From an uncultured delta proteobacterium (GTDB taxonomy: Bacteria; Desulfobacterota; BSN033; UBA1163): 64,000 nt of DNA. Location of the stretch: the NCBI GenBank assembly GCA_963695895.1, contig CAVOIK010000015.1:38400-102399 (forward strand), written 5' to 3'. This document shows, one piece after another, positions 6,119-62,050 of the stretch (positions are counted from its first letter, which is position 1; every line of letters begins with the position of its first letter). Position numbers and translations under genes: made by a program. Below the pieces are notes generated by a model. It did not search any database and was not told the origin of the DNA. It saw only the letters and a list, made by a program, of their open reading frames with translations.

Positions 6119-6210
6119 AGCTCCCCGCCCCTACCTGCCTGCGGAAGCCAGGGGGGGAATTCACATACACAACGAATCAGTCCGAAATTGGCATGGTTCC
6201 GCTCGAACAG

Positions 6211-37589: not shown

Positions 37590-37752
37590 TTGGATTCCCT
37601 TCCACCTGGCCGGAGAGTTCCCCGTCGCGCCCAGGCAGGATAGGGGGGTCCCTGCCTGCCGGCAGGCAGGCACAATATAGAAATAGTAAATCATTGTCGG
37701 GAAGTCCCGGGCTGTGCCTGCCTGTCGGCAGACAGGCGCGGGAGCTTCATAA
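37590..37752. repeat. BIME/REP-like mosaic intergenic repeat unit (type 2)
   Basis: Contains palindrome cctgcctgccggcaggcagg, box cacaatatagaaatagtaaatcattgtcgggaag, second palindrome ctgtgcctgcctgtcggcagacaggcgcgggagcttcat. Near-identical unit at 41172-41302. Confidence 0.6.
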
Positions 37753-41171: not shown

Positions 41172-41302
41172 ACCGGAGCGTGCCCCGTCCCGCCTTAGCG
41201 GGATGAGCGGGGCTTGCGGCAGGCACAATATTAAATAACAAATCATTGCCGGGAAGCCCCGCGCTGTGCCTGCCTGCGGTAGGCAGGCGCGGGGACTTCG
41301 CA
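41172..41302. repeat. BIME/REP-like mosaic repeat unit (type 2)
   Basis: gccccgtcccgccttagcgggatgagcggggc hairpin; aggcacaatattaaataacaaatcattgccgggaagccccgcgctgtgcctgcctgcggtaggcaggcgcggggacttcgc. Confidence 0.6.
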
Positions 41303-51105: not shown

Positions 51106-51126
51106 TCCAAAGAGCATTCCCTTCCC

Positions 51127-51176
51127 ACGGGCAAGTCGGCTGGATGCCCCGCCTTGGGGCGGGGAGCTTCATTCAC
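51127..51176. repeat. REP-like short unit
   Basis: gggcaagtcggctggatgccccgccttggggcggggagcttcat, the same module as at 54763-54800 and 61716-61745. Confidence 0.5.
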
Positions 51177-54629: not shown

Positions 54630-54759
54630 CGTTTAACCCCTTTCTGTGAAGTTTATTGATTTTTCTAACATTTTCATTTAGCGTGTGTCAAGTTTTGCTT
54701 CCTTTTCCCGTCACATGGATAAGGAGTAGAGGCGATAGATCAAGAGGAGAACGTCCAGT

Positions 54760-54886
54760 CGCGGGCAAGTCGGCTGGATGCCCCGCCTTGTACGCGGGGA
54801 GGAAGATCGACCCTGTCATCATATCTACATTACCCGGAAGCCCCGCCCTGTGCCTGCCTGCGGTAGGCAGGGACGGGGAGCTTCAC
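54760..54886. repeat. REP/BIME-like mosaic unit immediately 5' of murJ
   Basis: gggcaagtcggctggatgccccgccttgtacgcggggaggaagatcgaccctgtcatcatatctacattacccggaagccccgccctgtgcctgcctgcggtaggcagggacggggagcttcac; same architecture at 61716-61850. Confidence 0.6.
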
Positions 54887-54892
54887 TGTCCT

Positions 54893-56416
54893 ATGACTGA
54901 ACAACACAAGATTACCAGAGCAGCCACCACGATCGGGACCGGAACGCTTCTCAGTCGTATCCTGGGATTTCTGAGGGATATGGTTATTGCCAATTTCTTT
55001 GGGGCCGGGATGGCAGCAGACGCTTTTTTTGTCGCTTTTCGCCTTCCCAATCTCTGGAGGAGATTGGTCGGAGAGGGGTCGATGACCATCTCCTTTATCC
55101 CCGTCTATACGGAGTACCTGACGCAGCGTTCAGAGGAAGAATCGAGGGAACTGACCCACATCGCCTTTACGTTGGCTGGGACTCTCTTGGCCATCCTCAC
55201 CATTCTGGGCGTCGTTTTTGCGCCCCTCCTCGTACGGATCATTGCACCAGGATGGGTGAGAAAATCCCCAGAAACATTCCAACTGACGGTAACGTCTTAG
55301 TCAGGATCATCTTTCCCTATATCTTCTTCATGGGCTTGTTTGCTCTGGCCATGGGGATACTGAATTCCCGCAGGCATTTTTTCGCCCCCTCTCTTGCTCC
55401 GGTCTTTCTCAACATCTGCATGATTCTGTCTGTTCTGCTATTTTTTTTCCATTTAAAACCACCTGTGTTGACTCTTGCCTTCGGAGTTCTTGCCGGGGGT
55501 GTTCTGCAGTTCTTGTTTCAGATCCCTTTTTTGTCGAAGAAGGGGATCACCTTTCGATTCAACTTTGATGTCAGGCATCCCGCCATTCGACGAATCGGGC
55601 TTCTCATGGTTCCGGGTCTGATCGGGACGGCGGTCTATCAACTCAACGTCTTTATCGATACGATCTTTGCTTCCTTTTTGCCCGGCGGAAGCGTTTCCTA
55701 TCTTTACTTTGCGGACCGACTCATGGAGTTTCCCCTCGGGATCTTTGCAGTCGCCATGGGGGTGGCTGCCCTCCCCAGTCTTTCAGAACTGGCCTCTAGG
55801 GGAAGGAAAGAGGAGCTGAGCGAAACCGTTTCGTTTGCGTTTCGGCTCGTTTCCTTTATCAGTGTTCCTGCACTGGTAGGGTTGATTGCCTTGAAGACGC
55901 CTATCATCAACCTTCTCTTCCAGAGGGGAGTTTTCGACGAACATGCGACCCAGATGACGGCGAGAGCTCTGCTCTGCTATTGCGTGGGACTCTGGGCCAT
56001 CGCCGGAGTGAGGACCGTTGTCCCCGCCTTCTATGCCCTCCAGGATACGAAGACCCCTTTGAAGATTGGACTGATTTGCTTGGGCGCAAATGTTGTCCTG
56101 AATGCCGCTCTTGATCGTTCCTCTCCAGCATGCTGGGTTAGCCCTTGCCACCAGTCTTTCATCTTTCCTGAACCTCGTTCTTCTGTCGAGGAAACTGAGA
56201 GAAGCCCTGGGAAAGATCGACTTCAGGAAGGATATCAAATCTCTAATGCGACACTTTGCCTGCAGCGTGCCCATGGGGTTGGCGGCCTATCTGATTTGTT
56301 CTTCTGGAGACTGGACCCAGGCGGGCCGCAGCCTGCCCAAGCTTTTTCTTCTGATGATTGGAATCGTTGTCGGAGCAGGCGTCTACCTGGCGTGCTCTTA
56401 CTGGACGAAAGAATGA
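54893..56416 (+). pseudogene. murJ: lipid II flippase MurJ (MviN) with two apparent frameshifts (~55297 and ~56113)
   Basis: MTEQHKITRAATTIGTGTLLSRILGFLRDMVIANFFGAG...PETFQLTVT / LVRIIFPYIFFMGLFALAMGILNS...GLICLGANVVLNAAL / IVPLQHAGLALATSLSSFLNLVLLSRKLRE...YLACSYWTKE*. Confidence 0.7.
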
Positions 56417-56491
56417 AGAGATGCTGTTCTTGTTGAAGATGGTGAAAAGGAAGAGGCGACCCTGAAGAGCAGGAAGGGACCGTTCCTTGCT

Positions 56492-57652
56492 ATGATAGAA
56501 AAGGCTGCAGATGTTGTCATCGTCGGCGGAGGGGTCATCGGAGCAAGCATTGCCTACCACCTTGCCATGAGAAAGGCGGGCAGGGTGCTTCTGCTCGAAA
56601 AAGGGCAGCTCGGCGAGGGTTCCACGAGTCGCTGTGTCGGGCGGAATCCGAACCCAATTCTCCACCGAGATCAATCTCCTGTTCTCTCTGGAATCCTTGA
56701 AAACCTTTGAGCAGTTTCAAGACGAATTTGGCGTCGATCCTGAATTCAGGCGCATCGGCTATCTCTTCCTGGCGACGATCACCCATTGAGATGAAAATAT
56801 TTAAGGAAAACGTTATAGTTGCAGAGAAAATATGATATCCCTGTTGAACTTTTGAACGGCGATGAGATCAAGAGAAGGTGGCCCTACTTGAGGACGGACG
56901 ACATCGTGGGCGGAACCTTCTGCCCCTGGGATGGGTATGCGGGCCGAGTGAGGTTCTGTCAGGATTTGCCGCTGCCGCGAGAAGGGCGGGGGTAAAGATT
57001 CATGAAGGGGTTGAAGCCGTCGGGATTCAAGTGAAGGGAGGAAAGGTCGAGTCCGTCACCACAAAAGAAGGGGAAATCTCAACGCGTGTTGTCGTGAATG
57101 CGGCAGGTCCCCACGCCGCCGCAGATTGGAGCGATGGCAGGCGTGGACGTTCCCGTCAAACCCCTCCGAAGGCAGATCTTCGTCACAGCACCTTTTCGGC
57201 TCACGGACCAGGCGATCCCATTAACCATCGATTTTCACAGGGGCTGGTATTTTCGTCAGGAAGTGGACGGTTACCTTCTTTCAGGGCCTCTGGACAAGGA
57301 GCCAAGCTTCAACCTCACTCTTGACTATGAAGCCATGGCAGAGGCTGTTGACCACGCAATCTATCGTGTCCCAACACTGGAGAATGCCCGGATTGCAAGA
57401 GGATGGGCAGGACTTTATGAGATTTCTCCTGACCATCATGCCATCCTGGGAAGGGTGCCTGAAGTCGAAGGCTTCATTCTGGCAAACGGGTTCAGTGGTC
57501 ACGGATTTCAACATAGTCCTGCGGTGGGAAAAGTGATTGCAGAACTCATCGTGGATGGGAAGGCGACGACCATCGACATTTCACCCCTCTCTATTGAGCG
57601 CTTTTCGAGAGGCGAACTTATTCAAGAGTCCATGACCGCCTTCAAGGATTGA
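56492..57652 (+). pseudogene. FAD-dependent oxidoreductase (DAO/sarcosine-oxidase-beta/ThiO-like), five frameshifts in 1.16 kb (~56639, ~56784, ~56833, ~56935, ~57122)
   Basis: MIEKAADVVIVGGGVIGASIAYHLA...GSTSRCV / GGIRTQFSTEINLLFSLESLKTFEQF...GYLFLATIT / IEMKIFKENVIVAEKI / DIPVELLNGDEIKRRWPYLRTDDIVGGTFCPWDGYAG / PSEVLSGFAAAARRAGVKIHEGVEAVGI...VVVNAAGPHAA / QIGAMAGVDVPVKPLRRQIFVT...ANGFSGHGFQHSPAVGK. Confidence 0.6.
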
Positions 57653-57990
57653 TTTTAGGATTCTGACCATAGGTCGTTCGTTTATTTTCTATCACGCGTA
57701 AACAGCCATGATCTTTCCAAAGCAGGGGCTTCGTGTCTGGATTATATCCGTTGGAGTGATCTTTAGAGAAGATTGTCAAAAACTATTCCTGCCAGGCTGC
57801 TCAAAAAGGCAGCAGATGCAAGTTGAGCCTTGCGAAATCCCGTTCGCGGGAGCGCCCGAAATCCTGAGAGTGGCGTCGCGACGAATAAGGAGCGACTTCT
57901 TGCCACGCCGGCGAGTTGGTGAGCCGGCCAGAGGCGTACTTCAGGGGAAACGCCGCAGATGAGTCTTTTGGGGCAGCCTGAGAGATATTA

Positions 57991-60111
57991 CTACCGTGCG
58001 ACGGACTGCTGCACTGCCGTGACGATTTCCTTCTGAAAATTGTCGTAGGCTGCCTTAAACTCAGCAAGGGTCTTCTGAACCGGGCCAAACTTGGGCCACT
58101 CCTCCGGTTTCAAGCCCTCCTTCCCGAAGTCTCCTACGATTCCCGCCGACTTGAAGATACCTGCCAGTTCAGGGTTGATGTCGTAGGCCTTGCAGAAGTC
58201 ATCGATCTGTCTCAACCGCTGCAGAAACTGAGGTGGAAAGGTCTTCGAAATCGAGGATTCGTACTCCTTCAGCCTGAAGTGGTCCGTTTCAGACAGGGTC
58301 CTCACATTTTCCTGGTGGTCCGGAAACTCCGTGTGAACCATGTTCTTTGAGGCAAGGGTCCAATAGGTATCGAAAGGCTTCCGCTTGGAAGCTGGGAGAT
58401 AGTGGATTCGGTCGAGAATCAGCTTGGCTTGAGCTTGGGTCACTCCGTATTTCTTGCGCAGGTAACGAGCCCAACGGGGTCGATTCCTGGGAGAGAAGAA
58501 GATCGACCACACCCTTCTGGCGACGAAGGTCCCTGATCGGCCGATGGCCTCCTCCCAATCCAGGAGGTCCTGCTTGGAAGCAACATCCGCAAGGGCTTCG
58601 CAGACCGGTTCATTGATGGTTCGTTGATTGGCAAAACGTGTGGCGGCGACAACCTTTTCTTGGTAAGTGCTGGCTTTGGCCACCTTGTCCTTGGTTCCGT
58701 TGGCTCCGGCCAAGTGCTCGACCTTTTCGATGGCCTTTTGTTCTCCAACTTTCTTCTTCAATTCCTGAAAGAGCTCTTCGAGCTTAACCTCTCTGAGATG
58801 GCTCTCCAAGCGGCCACCCATGTTGGTCATGTAAAGCTGGGTCGGCTGAATTCCTTTCCTGAGGGCGCCTGCCATTCCTTCCATTTCGTCGAGGATCAGT
58901 GTGGCCTCTTGACTCACCGTGTAATCCACCGTGATGTTCGATCCGAAACCAAAGCGATTGATGGCTCGGGTGATGGTTCTTGCCGCGGGCGTTGTCGCAG
59001 CCACCTTGATCACGATGTTGGGTCTTCCTCTTTCAACCTCAGTACGGTACCCCGCCAGCAGGTAGCGGTCATACAGGGAGAGATTCTCCGAAGCGAGGGA
59101 AAAGGCCTTGAAGACGTCGCGAACACTTTCATCGACGAGGTGAGCAATGTTTGGGTTCAATTGAAAGCTGACCACTCCTCCACCTGACATCTCCCGAAGG
59201 TTGAAGAAGATGGGCCGGAAGACGTGGAGGTTGTCCCAAAGGGCAAGAAGTGTTGCGAAGAGGGTAATCTCTTCTCCGTGAAGAGATGGAGCCACTGACC
59301 ATTCGTGGAAGTTGGGATGACGTTTCAGCTCATCGCGGAAAATGGCCATAAGATCGGGTTCGTCCTGATAGGCTCTGGCTGCCAGGACAGGATTGGTAGA
59401 CACCTGCTCATAGCCGAGGTGTCTTAGCCATCTCAGCCCAAGAGCATAATCATTGCCGAACTTGCACTTTCCCTCCTTGACCATTCGGTAGTAGATATTT
59501 CCTTTGATTTCCACCTCGGCCTTCTTGAGAAGGGCGACCGCCACATTCTTCTGAAAATCGAGACCGCTCTCAATACGCGAGGCGGTTTTTGCAACCATGC
59601 TGTTCCCCTTCTGGACTTTCTTCATTCTGGCCAACCACTTCCGGATGACGGCCGAGGCCACAGAAGTCTCGCCTTCTTCTCTTTCGAGATTCTCCCACTC
59701 ATCCAGGGTGTTCCAAATGAATTCAAGGCATTCCTTCTTTTCTCGCTCACGGAGCCAGCGGCTCTCGAGCCCACAGAAATTGAGCCCCATTTCGGTCAAC
59801 GCCTCGTAAGCATACTGTCGGAAACGGACTTTTTCCTTCCAAGCCTCTTCGCTCTCCCCTTGGATGGGTTTGGCCGATGAAAAGAGAACATTCAATTGCC
59901 GGATGACTCCTGTGACCGTTCGAGACAACACGCCGTTCATCTCGGGGAAAAGAAGGTGATCGGCCGCCAGACAGGTCTGCCCCATTTGAACGAGTTGACA
60001 GATGTGAGCCACATGATCATCGGAAATGGGCGGTCTAGCCTCCAGCGAGAGCCTTTCCGGGATGCTCGAGCTGACAACCTGGTCCATCATGGGTTGGGCT
60101 AACTTCGTCAT
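57991..60111 (-). CDS. large (706 aa) transaldolase-fold domain protein with uncharacterised N- and C-terminal extensions
   Basis: Central region aligns to transaldolase: VSTNPVLAARAY (TTNPSL), GGVVSFQLNPNIAHL, NIVIKVAATTPAARTI (Schiff-base Lys region, cf. RILIKLASTWQGI), GSNITVDYTVSQEA (NCNLTLLFSFAQA). About 220 aa N-terminal and 290 aa C-terminal have no recognised domain. Confidence 0.5.
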   Translation of the reverse strand: MTKLAQPMMDQVVSSSIPERLSLEARPPISDDHVAHICQLVQMGQTCLAADHLLFPEMNGVLSRTVTGVIRQLNVLFSSAKPIQGESEEAWKEKVRFRQYAYEALTEMGLNFCGLESRWLREREKKECLEFIWNTLDEWENLEREEGETSVASAVIRKWLARMKKVQKGNSMVAKTASRIESGLDFQKNVAVALLKKAEVEIKGNIYYRMVKEGKCKFGNDYALGLRWLRHLGYEQVSTNPVLAARAYQDEPDLMAIFRDELKRHPNFHEWSVAPSLHGEEITLFATLLALWDNLHVFRPIFFNLREMSGGGVVSFQLNPNIAHLVDESVRDVFKAFSLASENLSLYDRYLLAGYRTEVERGRPNIVIKVAATTPAARTITRAINRFGFGSNITVDYTVSQEATLILDEMEGMAGALRKGIQPTQLYMTNMGGRLESHLREVKLEELFQELKKKVGEQKAIEKVEHLAGANGTKDKVAKASTYQEKVVAATRFANQRTINEPVCEALADVASKQDLLDWEEAIGRSGTFVARRVWSIFFSPRNRPRWARYLRKKYGVTQAQAKLILDRIHYLPASKRKPFDTYWTLASKNMVHTEFPDHQENVRTLSETDHFRLKEYESSISKTFPPQFLQRLRQIDDFCKAYDINPELAGIFKSAGIVGDFGKEGLKPEEWPKFGPVQKTLAEFKAAYDNFQKEIVTAVQQSVAR

Positions 60112-61658
60112 GGTCCTTCTCCTTTTTCGACGCCAAGAGATACTAGATGTTTTTCGATATGCCTTTCAAGCAGTGACCAATACTCTTCTTCAAACTGTGT
60201 CAGAACATGAAAGAAGCGGTTTCTAAAGAGGTCCGTACCTTCTGGGGTTTTTGCATTGAGCAGATAACCGTACGTGATGTGAAGGAGCTGTCTCGAATCG
60301 ACTTCATCGAGAAGGCCCACGAGCTCCTGATCCTTGAGGCGATTGACGTCCGGAATTTTTTCGAGATCGGTCGTCACGTGGTAAAGTTTTGCGGCGTCCT
60401 TAAAAACCGATAGCGCATACTCGTGCATCTGTCGGTAGAGGGGTGGGGCGATCTCAGCGATCAAGCGCACGGCCTCGAGCCAGCTCGTCCCCGCCGTCTT
60501 GAGGTGGAAGCCGCCCTTTGACAACCTTCCGATCTCAGGAAAAACAGAGAATTTGTCGCTTCCCGAATGAATGGAGATCTTGTAATTTCCGTAATGCTGG
60601 GCGATCAGGCTATGTTTGAGATACTGCTCGCGAAAGGCCTGGAGGTCTCCGATATAGTCGATGGCCTTCTGAAATTCACCAACGAACCTCGGAGCGAGCG
60701 AATCGAGCTGGACTCCTCGCTGAGTCACCTGAATAACAAAGAAGAGATGGTTTTCCGGAGTTGTCGGGAAAGGGGTTTCGTCAATGGAGATCTCAAAGTC
60801 GATCGTAGGTCTGTGGCCCGTTTTGGAATCGATGAATTCGTAAGCCTCCTCGGTGAAATCGATGGCTTTCTGATAGAGGAGGACATTTCGTTTCAGCTCT
60901 TCTTCATTGAATTGGATGCGACATTCTCCCTGAGGGCCTTTTAGATGAAATTCCTTCTCTAGAAAGAGATGGGAGAGGACTTTCATCTCTTCCTCATCCA
61001 CAGCTTGGTGAAACTCACGATCGAGCGTCTCCTTCGAGAACTCGAACGCCTTTGGATTCAACTTCTCTGACAAGTCGAGGGTTACCATCGATACGCCTGC
61101 ATCGAGGGCAGCCTTGATTTCCTGAAAGGTCTTCAGATGGTCTCCGTCCGCTCCGTATCCTTTTTGATAATTTTCCAGGAAAACCCCCCAGGCTGCATCC
61201 TGGATCATCTCTGGAAAGCTTCGGCCTGTCTGTATATTTTCACGGACCGATTGCTGGGCGAGGACGGGACGAACCGGAAACTTGTCGACCGCGCGCAGGT
61301 GGCCGGGAGTTGCCAGCCCCAGTCGATCTCCCGTCCCGATCGTTGTCCACTTCCTCAAGAGAGGAATCGGTTTCGTGAAAGGGAAAAGATCCATGAGACA
61401 CTGAGTGTTTTCCAAAGTCAGATCGCAGAGCTTGAGGGTGGATGCATCATGGAAAGTTCTTCCTTTGAAGGGATCGGCAAGAACTGCTGCCTTTTCTCCA
61501 AGGACAACCAGTTTTTTCCCCTCTGGGTTCCGAATCAACCCATAGATTAAGCCGTTCTTGAGGACGAAAGACTTTGGATAAAACTTGAGCAACTGGAGCG
61601 GAAAGCGCTTGAGGGATTCGGAAATCTTTTCGTGAGAGATTGTCGGTTCTTGGGTCAT
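60108..61658 (-). CDS. conserved hypothetical protein (516 aa), translationally coupled upstream of the transaldolase-fold gene; possible sugar isomerase/epimerase
   Basis: Intact ORF; stop overlaps the start of the 706-aa gene (ATGA); motifs TIGTGDRLGLATPGH, ISIHSGSDKFSVFP. Family not confidently identified. Confidence 0.35.
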   Translation of the reverse strand: MTQEPTISHEKISESLKRFPLQLLKFYPKSFVLKNGLIYGLIRNPEGKKLVVLGEKAAVLADPFKGRTFHDASTLKLCDLTLENTQCLMDLFPFTKPIPLLRKWTTIGTGDRLGLATPGHLRAVDKFPVRPVLAQQSVRENIQTGRSFPEMIQDAAWGVFLENYQKGYGADGDHLKTFQEIKAALDAGVSMVTLDLSEKLNPKAFEFSKETLDREFHQAVDEEEMKVLSHLFLEKEFHLKGPQGECRIQFNEEELKRNVLLYQKAIDFTEEAYEFIDSKTGHRPTIDFEISIDETPFPTTPENHLFFVIQVTQRGVQLDSLAPRFVGEFQKAIDYIGDLQAFREQYLKHSLIAQHYGNYKISIHSGSDKFSVFPEIGRLSKGGFHLKTAGTSWLEAVRLIAEIAPPLYRQMHEYALSVFKDAAKLYHVTTDLEKIPDVNRLKDQELVGLLDEVDSRQLLHITYGYLLNAKTPEGTDLFRNRFFHVLTQFEEEYWSLLERHIEKHLVSLGVEKGEGP

Positions 61659-61715
61659 GTTTCCCTCCCGTTGTTCGGATTATAGCTCTGGTCGTTCACC
61701 CTGTCAATTTTTCAC

Positions 61716-62050
61716 GGGCAAGTCGACTGGGAGCCCCGACTTGCCTGCCTGCGGTAGGCAGGTAATCGGGGAGGAAAGCCGACCCTATAGTCATATTTAC
61801 ATCTCCCGGAAGCCCCACCCTCTGGGCGGGTGCTTCCTTTTTCACTTTCCAGAGTTCATCTCATCTGCAAGAAGACCAAGGCATTGACCCTGCGATTCTG
61901 TCCAGGTTCTCTATTTTAGATTTACGAGAAGAGAGTACTCAGGGTCAACCCTGAGACTCAACTTGAACGGCTCGACTGAGCCCTTCGGTCTTGAGCGACT
62001 CAGGGTCGAAAGATTCGCCGAATTCTTGGGTCGAAGGGTTGACTTTTCTT
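61716..62050. repeat. REP/BIME-like units (two) in the divergent spacer before argS
   Basis: 61716-61850 gggcaagtcgactgggagccccgacttgcctgcctgcggtaggcaggtaatcggggaggaaagccgaccctatagtcatatttacatctcccggaagccccaccctctgggcggg; 61935-62045 ctcagggtcaaccctgag...cgactcagggtcgaaag...gtcgaagggttgac. Confidence 0.55.

Follow-up and report, generated by a model that had tools for sequence, protein, structure and literature searches.

Which reaction is carried out by the products of two overlapping genes in an uncultured delta proteobacterium? The genes lie on the minus strand of a 64,000-nucleotide (nt) stretch of its DNA (assembly GCA_963695895.1, contig CAVOIK010000015.1, positions 38,400 to 102,399), which we call the window. 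An earlier note had described them as a hypothetical protein followed by a much enlarged transaldolase. Open reading frame (ORF) calling confirms that both frames are intact: a protein of 516 amino acids (aa) is encoded at 60108..61658 and one of 706 aa at 57991..60111, each starting with ATG. The upstream protein belongs to the UxaE family. The downstream protein, to which we give the label TALX, is a long-form member of the class I aldolase superfamily that comprises transaldolase and fructose-6-phosphate aldolase (FSA). Our best inference is that TALX would act on D-fructuronate, as an aldolase or a transaldolase, and yield tartronate semialdehyde and a dihydroxyacetone unit. Substrate, products, mode of action (aldolase or transaldolase), and physiological direction are all proposed from homology, residue conservation, and synteny. 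The architecture of TALX and its active-site signature are new in the transaldolase superfamily, and its substrate class is probably new as well, whereas UxaE was already known.

The identity of the upstream protein provides the starting point. It matches the Pfam UxaE family (PF16257) with 576.2 bits (cut-off 27.1, E=6.4e-173), and the match extends over residues 27-507 and positions 1-474 of the 475 in the profile. UxaE of Cohnella laeviribosi, a fructuronate-tagaturonate epimerase represented by PDB entries 6ILB, 6IL9, and 6ILA, aligns with residues 16-510 (E~2e-125), and PDB entry 9LHW also matches (E=1e-110). The motifs HSGSDKFS and HLKTAGTSW recur in divergent members of the family. Judged by the profile and PDB matches, the protein is an orthodox, full-length tagaturonate/fructuronate (ketohexuronate C4) epimerase of an established family. 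The earlier note had called it a conserved hypothetical protein and possibly a sugar isomerase or epimerase; the guess of an epimerase was sound, but with a full UxaE match the protein is no longer hypothetical. The family is known from Thermotoga maritima as well as from C. laeviribosi. The distinction here is that, in the window and in more than 40 related loci, the uxaE-family gene is coupled to TALX.

Assigning TALX to a superfamily required more effort. Its transaldolase/FSA core had been called unmistakable, and although the core fold is borne out, the single sequence gives only marginal matches: 25.1 bits on Pfam TAL_FSA (PF00923), which is below the 27-bit cut-off (E=1.4e-5), 18.7 bits on the best NCBIfam transaldolase model (cut-off 367), and a nonsignificant phmmer match in PDB (E=0.6). 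Therefore, the assignment depends on profile and fold evidence. A profile of the family (A2) matches PDB transaldolases with E=1.7e-15, and P0123, a family member that is 44% identical to TALX over its full length, scores 47.3 bits on TAL_FSA. Overall, closer and more distant members exceed the Pfam threshold, with 47-108 bits. An AlphaFold model of TALX based on a 65-sequence alignment that includes distant members has a mean predicted local distance difference test score (pLDDT) of 94, a predicted template-modeling score (pTM) of 0.92, and eight barrel strands (residues 217-220, 236-237, 313-317, 366-371, 390-396, 426-430, 569-573, and 591-595). It supersedes an earlier model based on 42 close homologues (pLDDT 79.8, with beta1 and beta7-8 below 50, and Foldseek E~2e-3). 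When the current model is compared with PDB by using Foldseek, the top 50 matches are all transaldolases (best E=2e-9, probability 1.0, template-modeling score 0.76 to the target), with about 507 aligned columns against transaldolases of 350 aa. On this combination of profile matches and modeled structure, TALX is a class I aldolase of the transaldolase/FSA superfamily with the transaldolase fold.

The same model revises the view of how TALX is built. It depicts a helical N-terminal domain of 212 aa and, after it, an entire (beta/alpha)8 barrel that takes up residues 213-706 and reaches the C terminus, such that only the N-terminal domain is a true extension. This domain (residues 1-212; 59476..60111, minus strand) is all-helical, with 11 helices that span residues 6-212 and a pLDDT mostly above 90. 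As the earlier note had observed, this region, of about 210 aa, contains nothing recognizable as a domain: Pfam returns no match for it, and it lacks a relative in PDB, since Foldseek matches only the barrel. In the alignment, short-form relatives carry a reduced N-terminal helical region of about 130 aa. Strands beta1 to beta6 occupy residues 213-455 (58747..59475), as located by profile alignment, by a bridge through the short-form relative P0214 to PDB entry 3R5E, by the strands of the model, and by conservation. Between alpha6 and beta7, residues 456-567 (58411..58746) form an insertion of eight helices with high pLDDT; its roughly 110 aa are missing both from the 460-aa relatives, where the alignment has a gap, and from classical transaldolases. 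Alignment, model, and Foldseek all place beta7, beta8, and the C-terminal helices in the remainder (residues 568-706 plus the stop codon; 57991..58410), where beta7 is in the LPASKRKP segment (569-573) and beta8 in the HTEFP segment (591-595). The terminal helix, FGPVQKTLAEFKAAY, is common to the 460-aa short-form transaldolase relatives, and a further small insertion lies at about residues 644-668. Thus, what had been taken for a C-terminal extension of about 290 aa is not a separate domain, but contains beta7, beta8, the C-terminal barrel helix, and the helical insertion. Fusion of the core to phosphoglucose isomerase (PGI), as in Tal-Pgi proteins, or to another known domain is ruled out, because Pfam and NCBIfam detect nothing beyond the TAL region and no non-barrel Foldseek match has a probability above 0.5.

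The active site is where TALX departs from its characterized relatives. The motifs quoted in the earlier note are present, at residues 237-241 (VSTNP), 366-375 (IVIKVAATTP), and 390-401 (GSNITVDYTVSQ). We placed TALX residues by alignment to short-form relatives and to PDB transaldolases (3CLM and 3R5E, with beta6 placed via P0214), and we counted conservation in the 65-sequence alignment, which covers bacteria and archaea and extends down to 22% identity. The Schiff-base lysine survives careful alignment: K369 (59005-59007), in the IVIKVAA segment on beta4, aligns with the lysine in AMIKVPA of Neisseria gonorrhoeae transaldolase and is kept in 64/65 sequences. D221 on beta1 (59449-59451) is kept in 63/65, N240 on beta2 and T394 on beta5 in 64/65 each, and T429 in 59/65. 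The residues of the anion site are likewise retained, with R434 in 64/65, S575 in 65/65, and R577 in 63/65. We take D221, N240, T394, T429, R434, S575, and R577 to correspond to D17, N35, T156, S176, R181, S226, and R228 of Escherichia coli TalB. ASLRGP and LPASKRKP, aligned through the short forms, were set against GASFR in TalB. The resemblance to classical transaldolases (TalB, 3CLM of N. gonorrhoeae, 3R5E of Corynebacterium glutamicum, and PF00923 in general) therefore includes the (beta/alpha)8 fold, the lysine on beta4, Asp on beta1, Asn on beta2, Thr on beta5, and the Arg/Ser/Arg set. However, TALX is twice as long, with its N-terminal domain and its insertion, and two positions differ in kind. 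At the column of the catalytic glutamate (E96 in TalB and E93 in the N. gonorrhoeae enzyme), where the latter reads VSLEVSP, TALX reads VSFQLNP, and this residue, Q317 (59161-59163), is Gln in 64/65 sequences. At the column of Phe178 in transaldolase and Tyr131 in FSA, TALX has M431, which is Met in 63/65. Of the catalytic Lys, Glu, and Asp, then, the lysine and the aspartate are conserved and the glutamate is replaced, and the profile alignment and family conservation argue against a classical transaldolase identity.

A Gln at this position is also part of the FSA active site, which consists of Asp6, Asn28, Gln59, Lys85, Thr109, and Tyr131; FSA is fully active with Gln59 and depends on Tyr131 (PMC13259622). 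The first five of these residues in E. coli FsaA correspond to D221, N240, Q317, K369, and T394 in TALX, whereas the essential proton shuttle Tyr131 is replaced by Met431. Also, FSA is a minimal barrel of 220 aa that forms decamers and has neither the N-terminal domain nor the insertion. Because of Gln317 in the Glu column and Met431 in the Phe178/Tyr131 column, TALX is neither a canonical transaldolase nor an FSA. Conservation of four additional residues, H438, K576, K578, and E595, is confined to the long form. H438 and E595 are candidate acid/base catalysts, and K576 and K578 are candidates for a remodeled anion site.

TALX is not a peculiarity of this genome. At a clustering level of 90% identity, more than 1000 clusters match with E<=1e-3, and wherever a source supplied a name, it was "hypothetical protein." The 120 homologues listed are 66-95% identical to TALX, nearly all full length, and aligned from about residue 1. 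Because both uxaE and TALX have abundant, mostly full-length homologues, we regard them as real genes, and not as chance ORFs. A phmmer search of 1.8 billion representatives gave 152 clusters, which include full-length relatives down to 33% identity as well as core-only proteins of 450-590 aa that score 59-108 bits on TAL_FSA. With each GTDB species represented by one genome, a scan found the family in 280 genomes, and the 80 of these that were examined are all metagenome-assembled genomes (MAGs). The bacterial MAGs include Thermodesulfobacteriota (Syntrophaceae and Syntrophorhabdus), NC10/Methylomirabilota, Armatimonadota, Anaerolineae, Dehalococcoidales, and Aerophobetes, and the archaeal MAGs include Thermoprotei, Thermofilaceae, Desulfurococcales, Pyrodictiaceae, Bathyarchaeia, and Hadarchaeota. 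One Thermofilaceae MAG (CAZCTW01) has two copies of TALX, on separate contigs and in differing neighborhoods (L061 and L068). P0156, a 626-aa member, has Gly in place of the Schiff-base Lys and alterations at the Asp, Gln, Thr, and Arg positions as well; given these substitutions, it is likely a noncatalytic paralogue or a decaying gene.

The nearest relatives outside the long family are short-form transaldolase family proteins of about 460 aa, which are also uncharacterized. The Gln/Met signature occurs in short forms such as P0214, P0223, P0251, and WP_428866854 of Clostridium sediminicola. As the signature is common to TALX and these short forms, it marks out a wider branch of the transaldolase superfamily that is still unexplored. 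The short forms also share a C-terminal helix with the pattern FxxAY...GL.PEEF..FxPV..TL. In contrast to TALX, they have shorter N-terminal helices, lack the 456-567 insertion, most of the N-terminal domain, H438, K576, K578, and E595, and easily pass the TAL_FSA threshold (79-108 bits). Searchable literature, in which most subscription journals are not covered, contained no prior description of the TALX family or of an aldolase or transaldolase acting on a ketohexuronate (fructuronate or keto-gluconate).

Gene neighborhoods provide the main clues to function. We surveyed 26 Thermodesulfobacteriota, 35 other bacterial, and 21 archaeal TALX loci, with flanks of up to 8 kb per side, less on short contigs. 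Since greedy ORF calling is unreliable in NC10 and Armatimonadota loci of high GC content (L041 +1 is one miscalled gene), neighbor counts were redone with tblastn. In Thermodesulfobacteriota, the usual order is a divergent argS, an optional KduI/IolB-like gene, uxaE, TALX, and a gene of the AP_endonuc_2 family. A UxaE-family gene adjoins TALX in 25/26 of these loci. The AP_endonuc_2 gene is located 3' of TALX in 20/26, and its best NCBIfam model is IolO (5-keto-L-gluconate epimerase), at 104-122 bits; hydroxypyruvate isomerase, considered as another identity, scores lower (41-56 bits), and both models stay below their cut-offs. The KduI/IolB-family gene precedes uxaE in 11/26, with IolB as its best NCBIfam model (107-113 bits, cut-off 205). 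Among the other bacteria, 10/35 loci have a divergent UxaE subfamily beside TALX, as in NC10 and Armatimonadota, where the product is 418 aa long and matches PF16257 with 173 bits and 6IL9 with E=5e-28. At an Anaerolineae locus (L070), the gene directly upstream of TALX encodes a bona fide IolO (375 bits, cut-off 300) and is preceded by an IolN-like gene and a major facilitator superfamily (MFS) transporter gene.

The 21 archaeal loci include IolG/GFO genes in 12, glyoxylate/hydroxypyruvate reductase genes in seven, AP_endonuc_2 genes in six, UxaE-family and IolM genes in five each, and IolN-like genes in three. Loci L066 and L069 have the order IolN-like gene (241.5 bits, cut-off 245), IolG (370, cut-off 355), UxaE-family gene, IolM (521, cut-off 450), TALX, and, immediately downstream, the glyoxylate/hydroxypyruvate reductase gene GyaR (602, cut-off 455); an IolO-like gene is also present in L069. 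Locus L073 contains TALX and genes for a GDPD phosphodiesterase, IolN-like, IolO-like, and UxaE-family proteins, IolG, and IolM. By these family matches, L066, L069, and L073 place TALX within a complete Thermotoga-type set. The genes of the Thermotoga-type oxidative myo-inositol pathway (IolG, IolM, IolN, IolO, and UxaE) thus surround TALX in archaeal and some bacterial loci, whereas the pathway as described does not include TALX, and the window holds only its UxaE step: the sole GFO-family match is 47 kb away, with 26% identity. This context also sets TALX apart from classical transaldolases, as its neighbors are genes for keto-uronate and inositol metabolism and not those of the pentose-phosphate pathway. 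Among the annotated neighbor families of TALX loci, no UxuA, UxuB, KdgK, or KdgA was identified. Our literature search, with the same coverage as above, also found no prior description of IolM/IolN/IolO variants.

Two other neighbors deserve mention. The GDPD-family gene is adjacent to TALX in L073 (2410-3147) and two genes upstream in L078 (cluster 61); it matches Pfam GDPD and, weakly, the NCBIfam glycerophosphodiester phosphodiesterase model (48.6 bits, cut-off 264), an association that suggests lipid head groups of the glycerophosphoinositol type as a possible source of the inositol. In three Bathyarchaeia loci (L063, L077, and L082), a fusion of formaldehyde-activating enzyme and hexulose-phosphate synthase (Fae-Hps) is encoded about 2-3 kb upstream of TALX, three genes away, where it adjoins AP_endonuc_2 and GFO-family genes and possibly indicates a link to the metabolism of fructose-6-phosphate and pentose phosphates.

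The proposed substrate follows from stereochemistry. Enzymes of the transaldolase/FSA type cleave only the D-threo (fructose) configuration at C3/C4. IolG, IolM, IolN, and IolO form the Thermotoga-type oxidative inositol route, which ends in D-tagaturonate, and UxaE interconverts D-tagaturonate and D-fructuronate by inversion at C4 (ketose numbering). IolO of T. maritima is a 5-keto-L-gluconate epimerase that gives D-tagaturonate (PMC12632266), and the pathway as a whole is described here after the names of NCBIfam models, PMC12632266, PMC3750489, and general biochemical background. Because IolO gives D-tagaturonate and UxaE then gives D-fructuronate, the chain of epimerases (sorbo- to tagato- to fructo-) ends at the stereoisomer that a transaldolase could cleave, and D-fructuronate is therefore the substrate that we propose for TALX.

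The reaction might proceed as follows. UxaE would supply the ketohexuronate with D-threo configuration at C3/C4, and K369 would form a Schiff base with its keto group. Retro-aldol cleavage between C3 and C4 would then release tartronate semialdehyde, a C3 aldehyde bearing the carboxylate, while the dihydroxyacetone unit stayed bound to the enzyme. This unit could either be released, as by an FSA-like aldolase, or be passed to an acceptor as by a transaldolase, for example to glyceraldehyde-3-phosphate to yield fructose-6-phosphate. Arg434, Ser575, and Arg577, together with the long-form-specific Lys576 and Lys578, presumably would bind the distal anionic group. Tartronate semialdehyde could be reduced to glycerate directly or after isomerization to hydroxypyruvate, and such a route would explain the GyaR neighbor and possibly the AP_endonuc_2 neighbor.

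A precedent for the transfer route exists in sulfofructose transaldolase, which cleaves an analogue of fructose with a sulfonate at C6, hands its dihydroxyacetone moiety on to either glyceraldehyde-3-phosphate or erythrose-4-phosphate, and frees an acidic C3 aldehyde (PMC7491151). This enzyme (6-deoxy-6-sulfofructose transaldolase, sulfo-TAL; BmSF-TAL, PDB 8C4I) shares the barrel with TALX and ranks 45th among the Foldseek matches. The parallel is one of function, in that both would act on a non-phosphate anion at C6. However, sulfo-TAL is about 220 aa long and decameric and is no nearer to TALX than other transaldolases are, and the anion proposed for the TALX substrate is a carboxylate, not a sulfonate.

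At a general level, TALX probably splits a keto-sugar acid in an undescribed branch of inositol or uronic-acid breakdown. More specifically, and only tentatively, we propose that TALX is a D-fructuronate transaldolase/aldolase that defines an unrecognized C3+C3 branch of hexuronate and myo-inositol degradation in uncultured anaerobic bacteria (Thermodesulfobacteriota, Methylomirabilota, Armatimonadota, and Chloroflexota) and archaea (Thermoprotei, Bathyarchaeia, and Hadarchaeota). Under this proposal, the branch would replace UxuB/UxuA/KdgK/KdgA, would yield tartronate semialdehyde (and then glycerate) plus dihydroxyacetone or fructose-6-phosphate, and would use acid/base chemistry (Gln/Met, with H438 and E595 as candidates) different from that of transaldolase and FSA.

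Several observations weigh against the D-fructuronate proposal. The Glu position holds Gln and the Phe/Tyr position holds Met, which leaves H438 and E595 only as candidate acid/base catalysts, and we know of no enzymology for any member of the TALX family. About half of the TALX loci surveyed, namely most from NC10, Chloroflexota, and Hadarchaeota and several from Thermoprotei, have no UxaE-family gene within the flank. The AP_endonuc_2 neighbor in Thermodesulfobacteriota scores far under the IolO cut-off of 300, and a tblastn census of the window finds uxaE and TALX but no IolO-like, IolB-like, transporter, or downstream enzyme gene. Moreover, since classical transaldolases bind phosphate at the Arg/Ser/Arg triad, the substrate could be a sugar phosphate, and the Fae-Hps gene of the three Bathyarchaeia loci, which relates to pentose-phosphate biosynthesis, also hints at sugar-phosphate metabolism. 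These last points would suit a sugar-phosphate aldolase or transaldolase of central metabolism, acting on fructose-6-phosphate or sedoheptulose-7-phosphate and standing in for the non-oxidative pentose-phosphate pathway, with the UxaE-family partner as a ketose-phosphate 4-epimerase (tagatose-6-phosphate to fructose-6-phosphate). We consider such an enzyme unlikely. It would account for the retention of the phosphate-binding R181, S226, and R228 of TalB as R434, S575, and R577, for the location of the pair among the housekeeping genes argS, murJ, rpsT, and holA with 66-70% identity across Thermodesulfobacteriota, and for NC10 and Armatimonadota loci that consist of TALX and a divergent UxaE-like gene only, with no uronate or inositol genes. 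However, UxaE in the window is orthodox and close to crystallized fructuronate-tagaturonate epimerases (E=2e-125), and the recurrent neighbors IolO, IolN, IolM, IolG, and the IolB-like protein act on unphosphorylated inositol or keto-acid intermediates. TALX also lacks both the catalytic Glu of transaldolases that use phosphorylated sugars and the Tyr of FSA, and Lys576 and Lys578, found only in the long form, would remodel the anion site.

If the substrate is an unphosphorylated keto-acid of inositol breakdown, it might still be one other than D-fructuronate. The chemistry would be the same, with a Schiff base at the keto group beside CH2OH and a carboxylate tail, if TALX cleaved the IolB product, 5-dehydro-2-deoxy-D-gluconate, to dihydroxyacetone and malonate semialdehyde and thereby bypassed IolC/IolJ, or if it cleaved 5-keto-L-gluconate or D-tagaturonate directly. 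The KduI/IolB-family genes, upstream of uxaE in Thermodesulfobacteriota as counted above and also present in an archaeal locus (L057, two genes from TALX and on the opposite strand), would fit such an activity. Even so, we give it little credence. The IolB-like scores do not reach the cut-off, the gene is missing from the window and from most loci, and TALX is not accompanied by an IolD or IolE set. UxaE, the partner that recurs most constantly, is known to produce only tagaturonate and fructuronate, and the general D-threo specificity of these enzymes excludes tagaturonate and 5-keto-L-gluconate unless that specificity has changed. A final possibility, which we regard as very improbable, is that TALX is catalytically dead and serves UxaE as a transaldolase-fold scaffold, chaperone, or regulatory subunit, comparable to noncatalytic partners of the GatZ/KbaZ type. 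The exchange of the acid/base Glu for Gln and the Met at the Phe/Tyr position would agree with this role, as would the overlap of the two genes, a large helical domain and an insertion that could be interaction surfaces, and the loss of the lysine and other active-site residues in P0156. Yet each of K369, D221, N240, T394, R434, S575, and R577 occurs in 63-65 of the 65 bacterial and archaeal sequences, to 22% identity, as would be expected of an active site that selection maintains. In addition, many TALX genes have no nearby UxaE gene, and in FSA a Gln in the Glu column is compatible with full activity (PMC13259622).

The arrangement of the two genes is consistent with joint expression. The TGA stop codon of uxaE and the ATG start codon of TALX overlap as ATGA at 60108..60111 (minus strand), with AAGGAG about 10 nt upstream, an arrangement that makes the translational coupling described earlier possible: the genes are tightly linked and probably cotranslated. 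Adjacency of uxaE and TALX is kept in related loci, but the exact overlap is not, as L001 has a 29-nt overlap as called and L002 a 46-nt gap. A promoter-like site (TTGACA, a 17-nt spacer, and TATAAT; 61679..61707, minus strand) lies about 20 nt 5' of the uxaE ATG and matches the consensus at 12/12 positions, and a Shine-Dalgarno-like GGGAGGG stretch precedes that ATG. The window contains four sites by our consensus promoter scan, compared with 2.2 expected, and the site upstream of uxaE is a perfect match, as a match to the consensus only. Perfect agreement with the sigma-70 consensus is unusual in natural promoters and hints at strong constitutive expression of uxaE-TALX. On the other side, 85 nt past the TALX stop codon, is a weak terminator-like hairpin with a T-rich tail (57892..57906, minus strand); the corresponding scan gave eight sites versus 6.1 expected, and this site is not significant alone. 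The best explanation of the whole is that the promoter-like site, uxaE, the ATGA overlap, and TALX constitute a bicistronic operon for two consecutive enzymes acting on keto-sugar acids, with TALX cleaving the D-fructuronate that UxaE supplies; taken together, this explanation is about as likely as not, or slightly less.

Upstream of the pair, argS is encoded on the plus strand and runs off the end of the window, so its divergent placement, as previously noted, is correct. Compared with loci L001-L023, the window has no AP_endonuc_2 (IolO-like) gene after TALX (57652-57991) and no KduI/IolB-like gene before uxaE. L001 also has a TAXI/TRAP transporter between the uxaE-TALX cluster and murJ, where the window has none. 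In view of these missing genes, this lineage keeps a minimal, two-gene version of the cluster.

The frames of uxaE and TALX are free of frameshifts, as had been claimed, unlike those of the neighboring genes. In murJ (54656-56456), tblastn against the L001 homologue reveals three switches of reading frame, and in the gene for a DAO-type flavin adenine dinucleotide (FAD) oxidoreductase (56495-57652), a stretch of about 450 nt in the middle is full of stop codons and frame errors. Since murJ is an essential gene as a rule, true pseudogenes are a less likely cause than errors in sequencing or assembly. A short repeat is present in two intergenic regions, at 54759-54880, between rpsT and murJ, and at 61712-61824, between uxaE and argS, where it abuts the perfect promoter-like site. 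The copies share 79-92% identity, and partial copies are found at 41244-41295, 51126-51166, 37692-37742, and 6123-6158. By blastn, the repeat has no counterpart in the 82 related loci; it could be an element resembling repetitive extragenic palindromes (REP) or miniature inverted-repeat transposable elements (MITE), or a shared regulatory sequence.

Even if our guess at the substrate is wrong, the reinterpretation of the supposed C-terminal extension as barrel with an insertion and the identification of the partner as UxaE both stand. If the proposal is right, TALX is a new enzyme that provides a new end-route for the degradation of hexuronates and inositol. The range of reactions in the transaldolase/FSA family, which is much used in stereoselective carbon-carbon bond biocatalysis, would also widen to include ketoses that bear a carboxylate, with a Gln and Met solution to the active site that is neither that of transaldolase nor that of FSA. 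Anoxic sediments, the subsurface, and hot springs are dominated by the lineages that carry TALX, and what is known of carbohydrate metabolism in these lineages comes almost entirely from annotation. Many metabolic reconstructions would gain from a name for the TALX family and an activity that can be tested.

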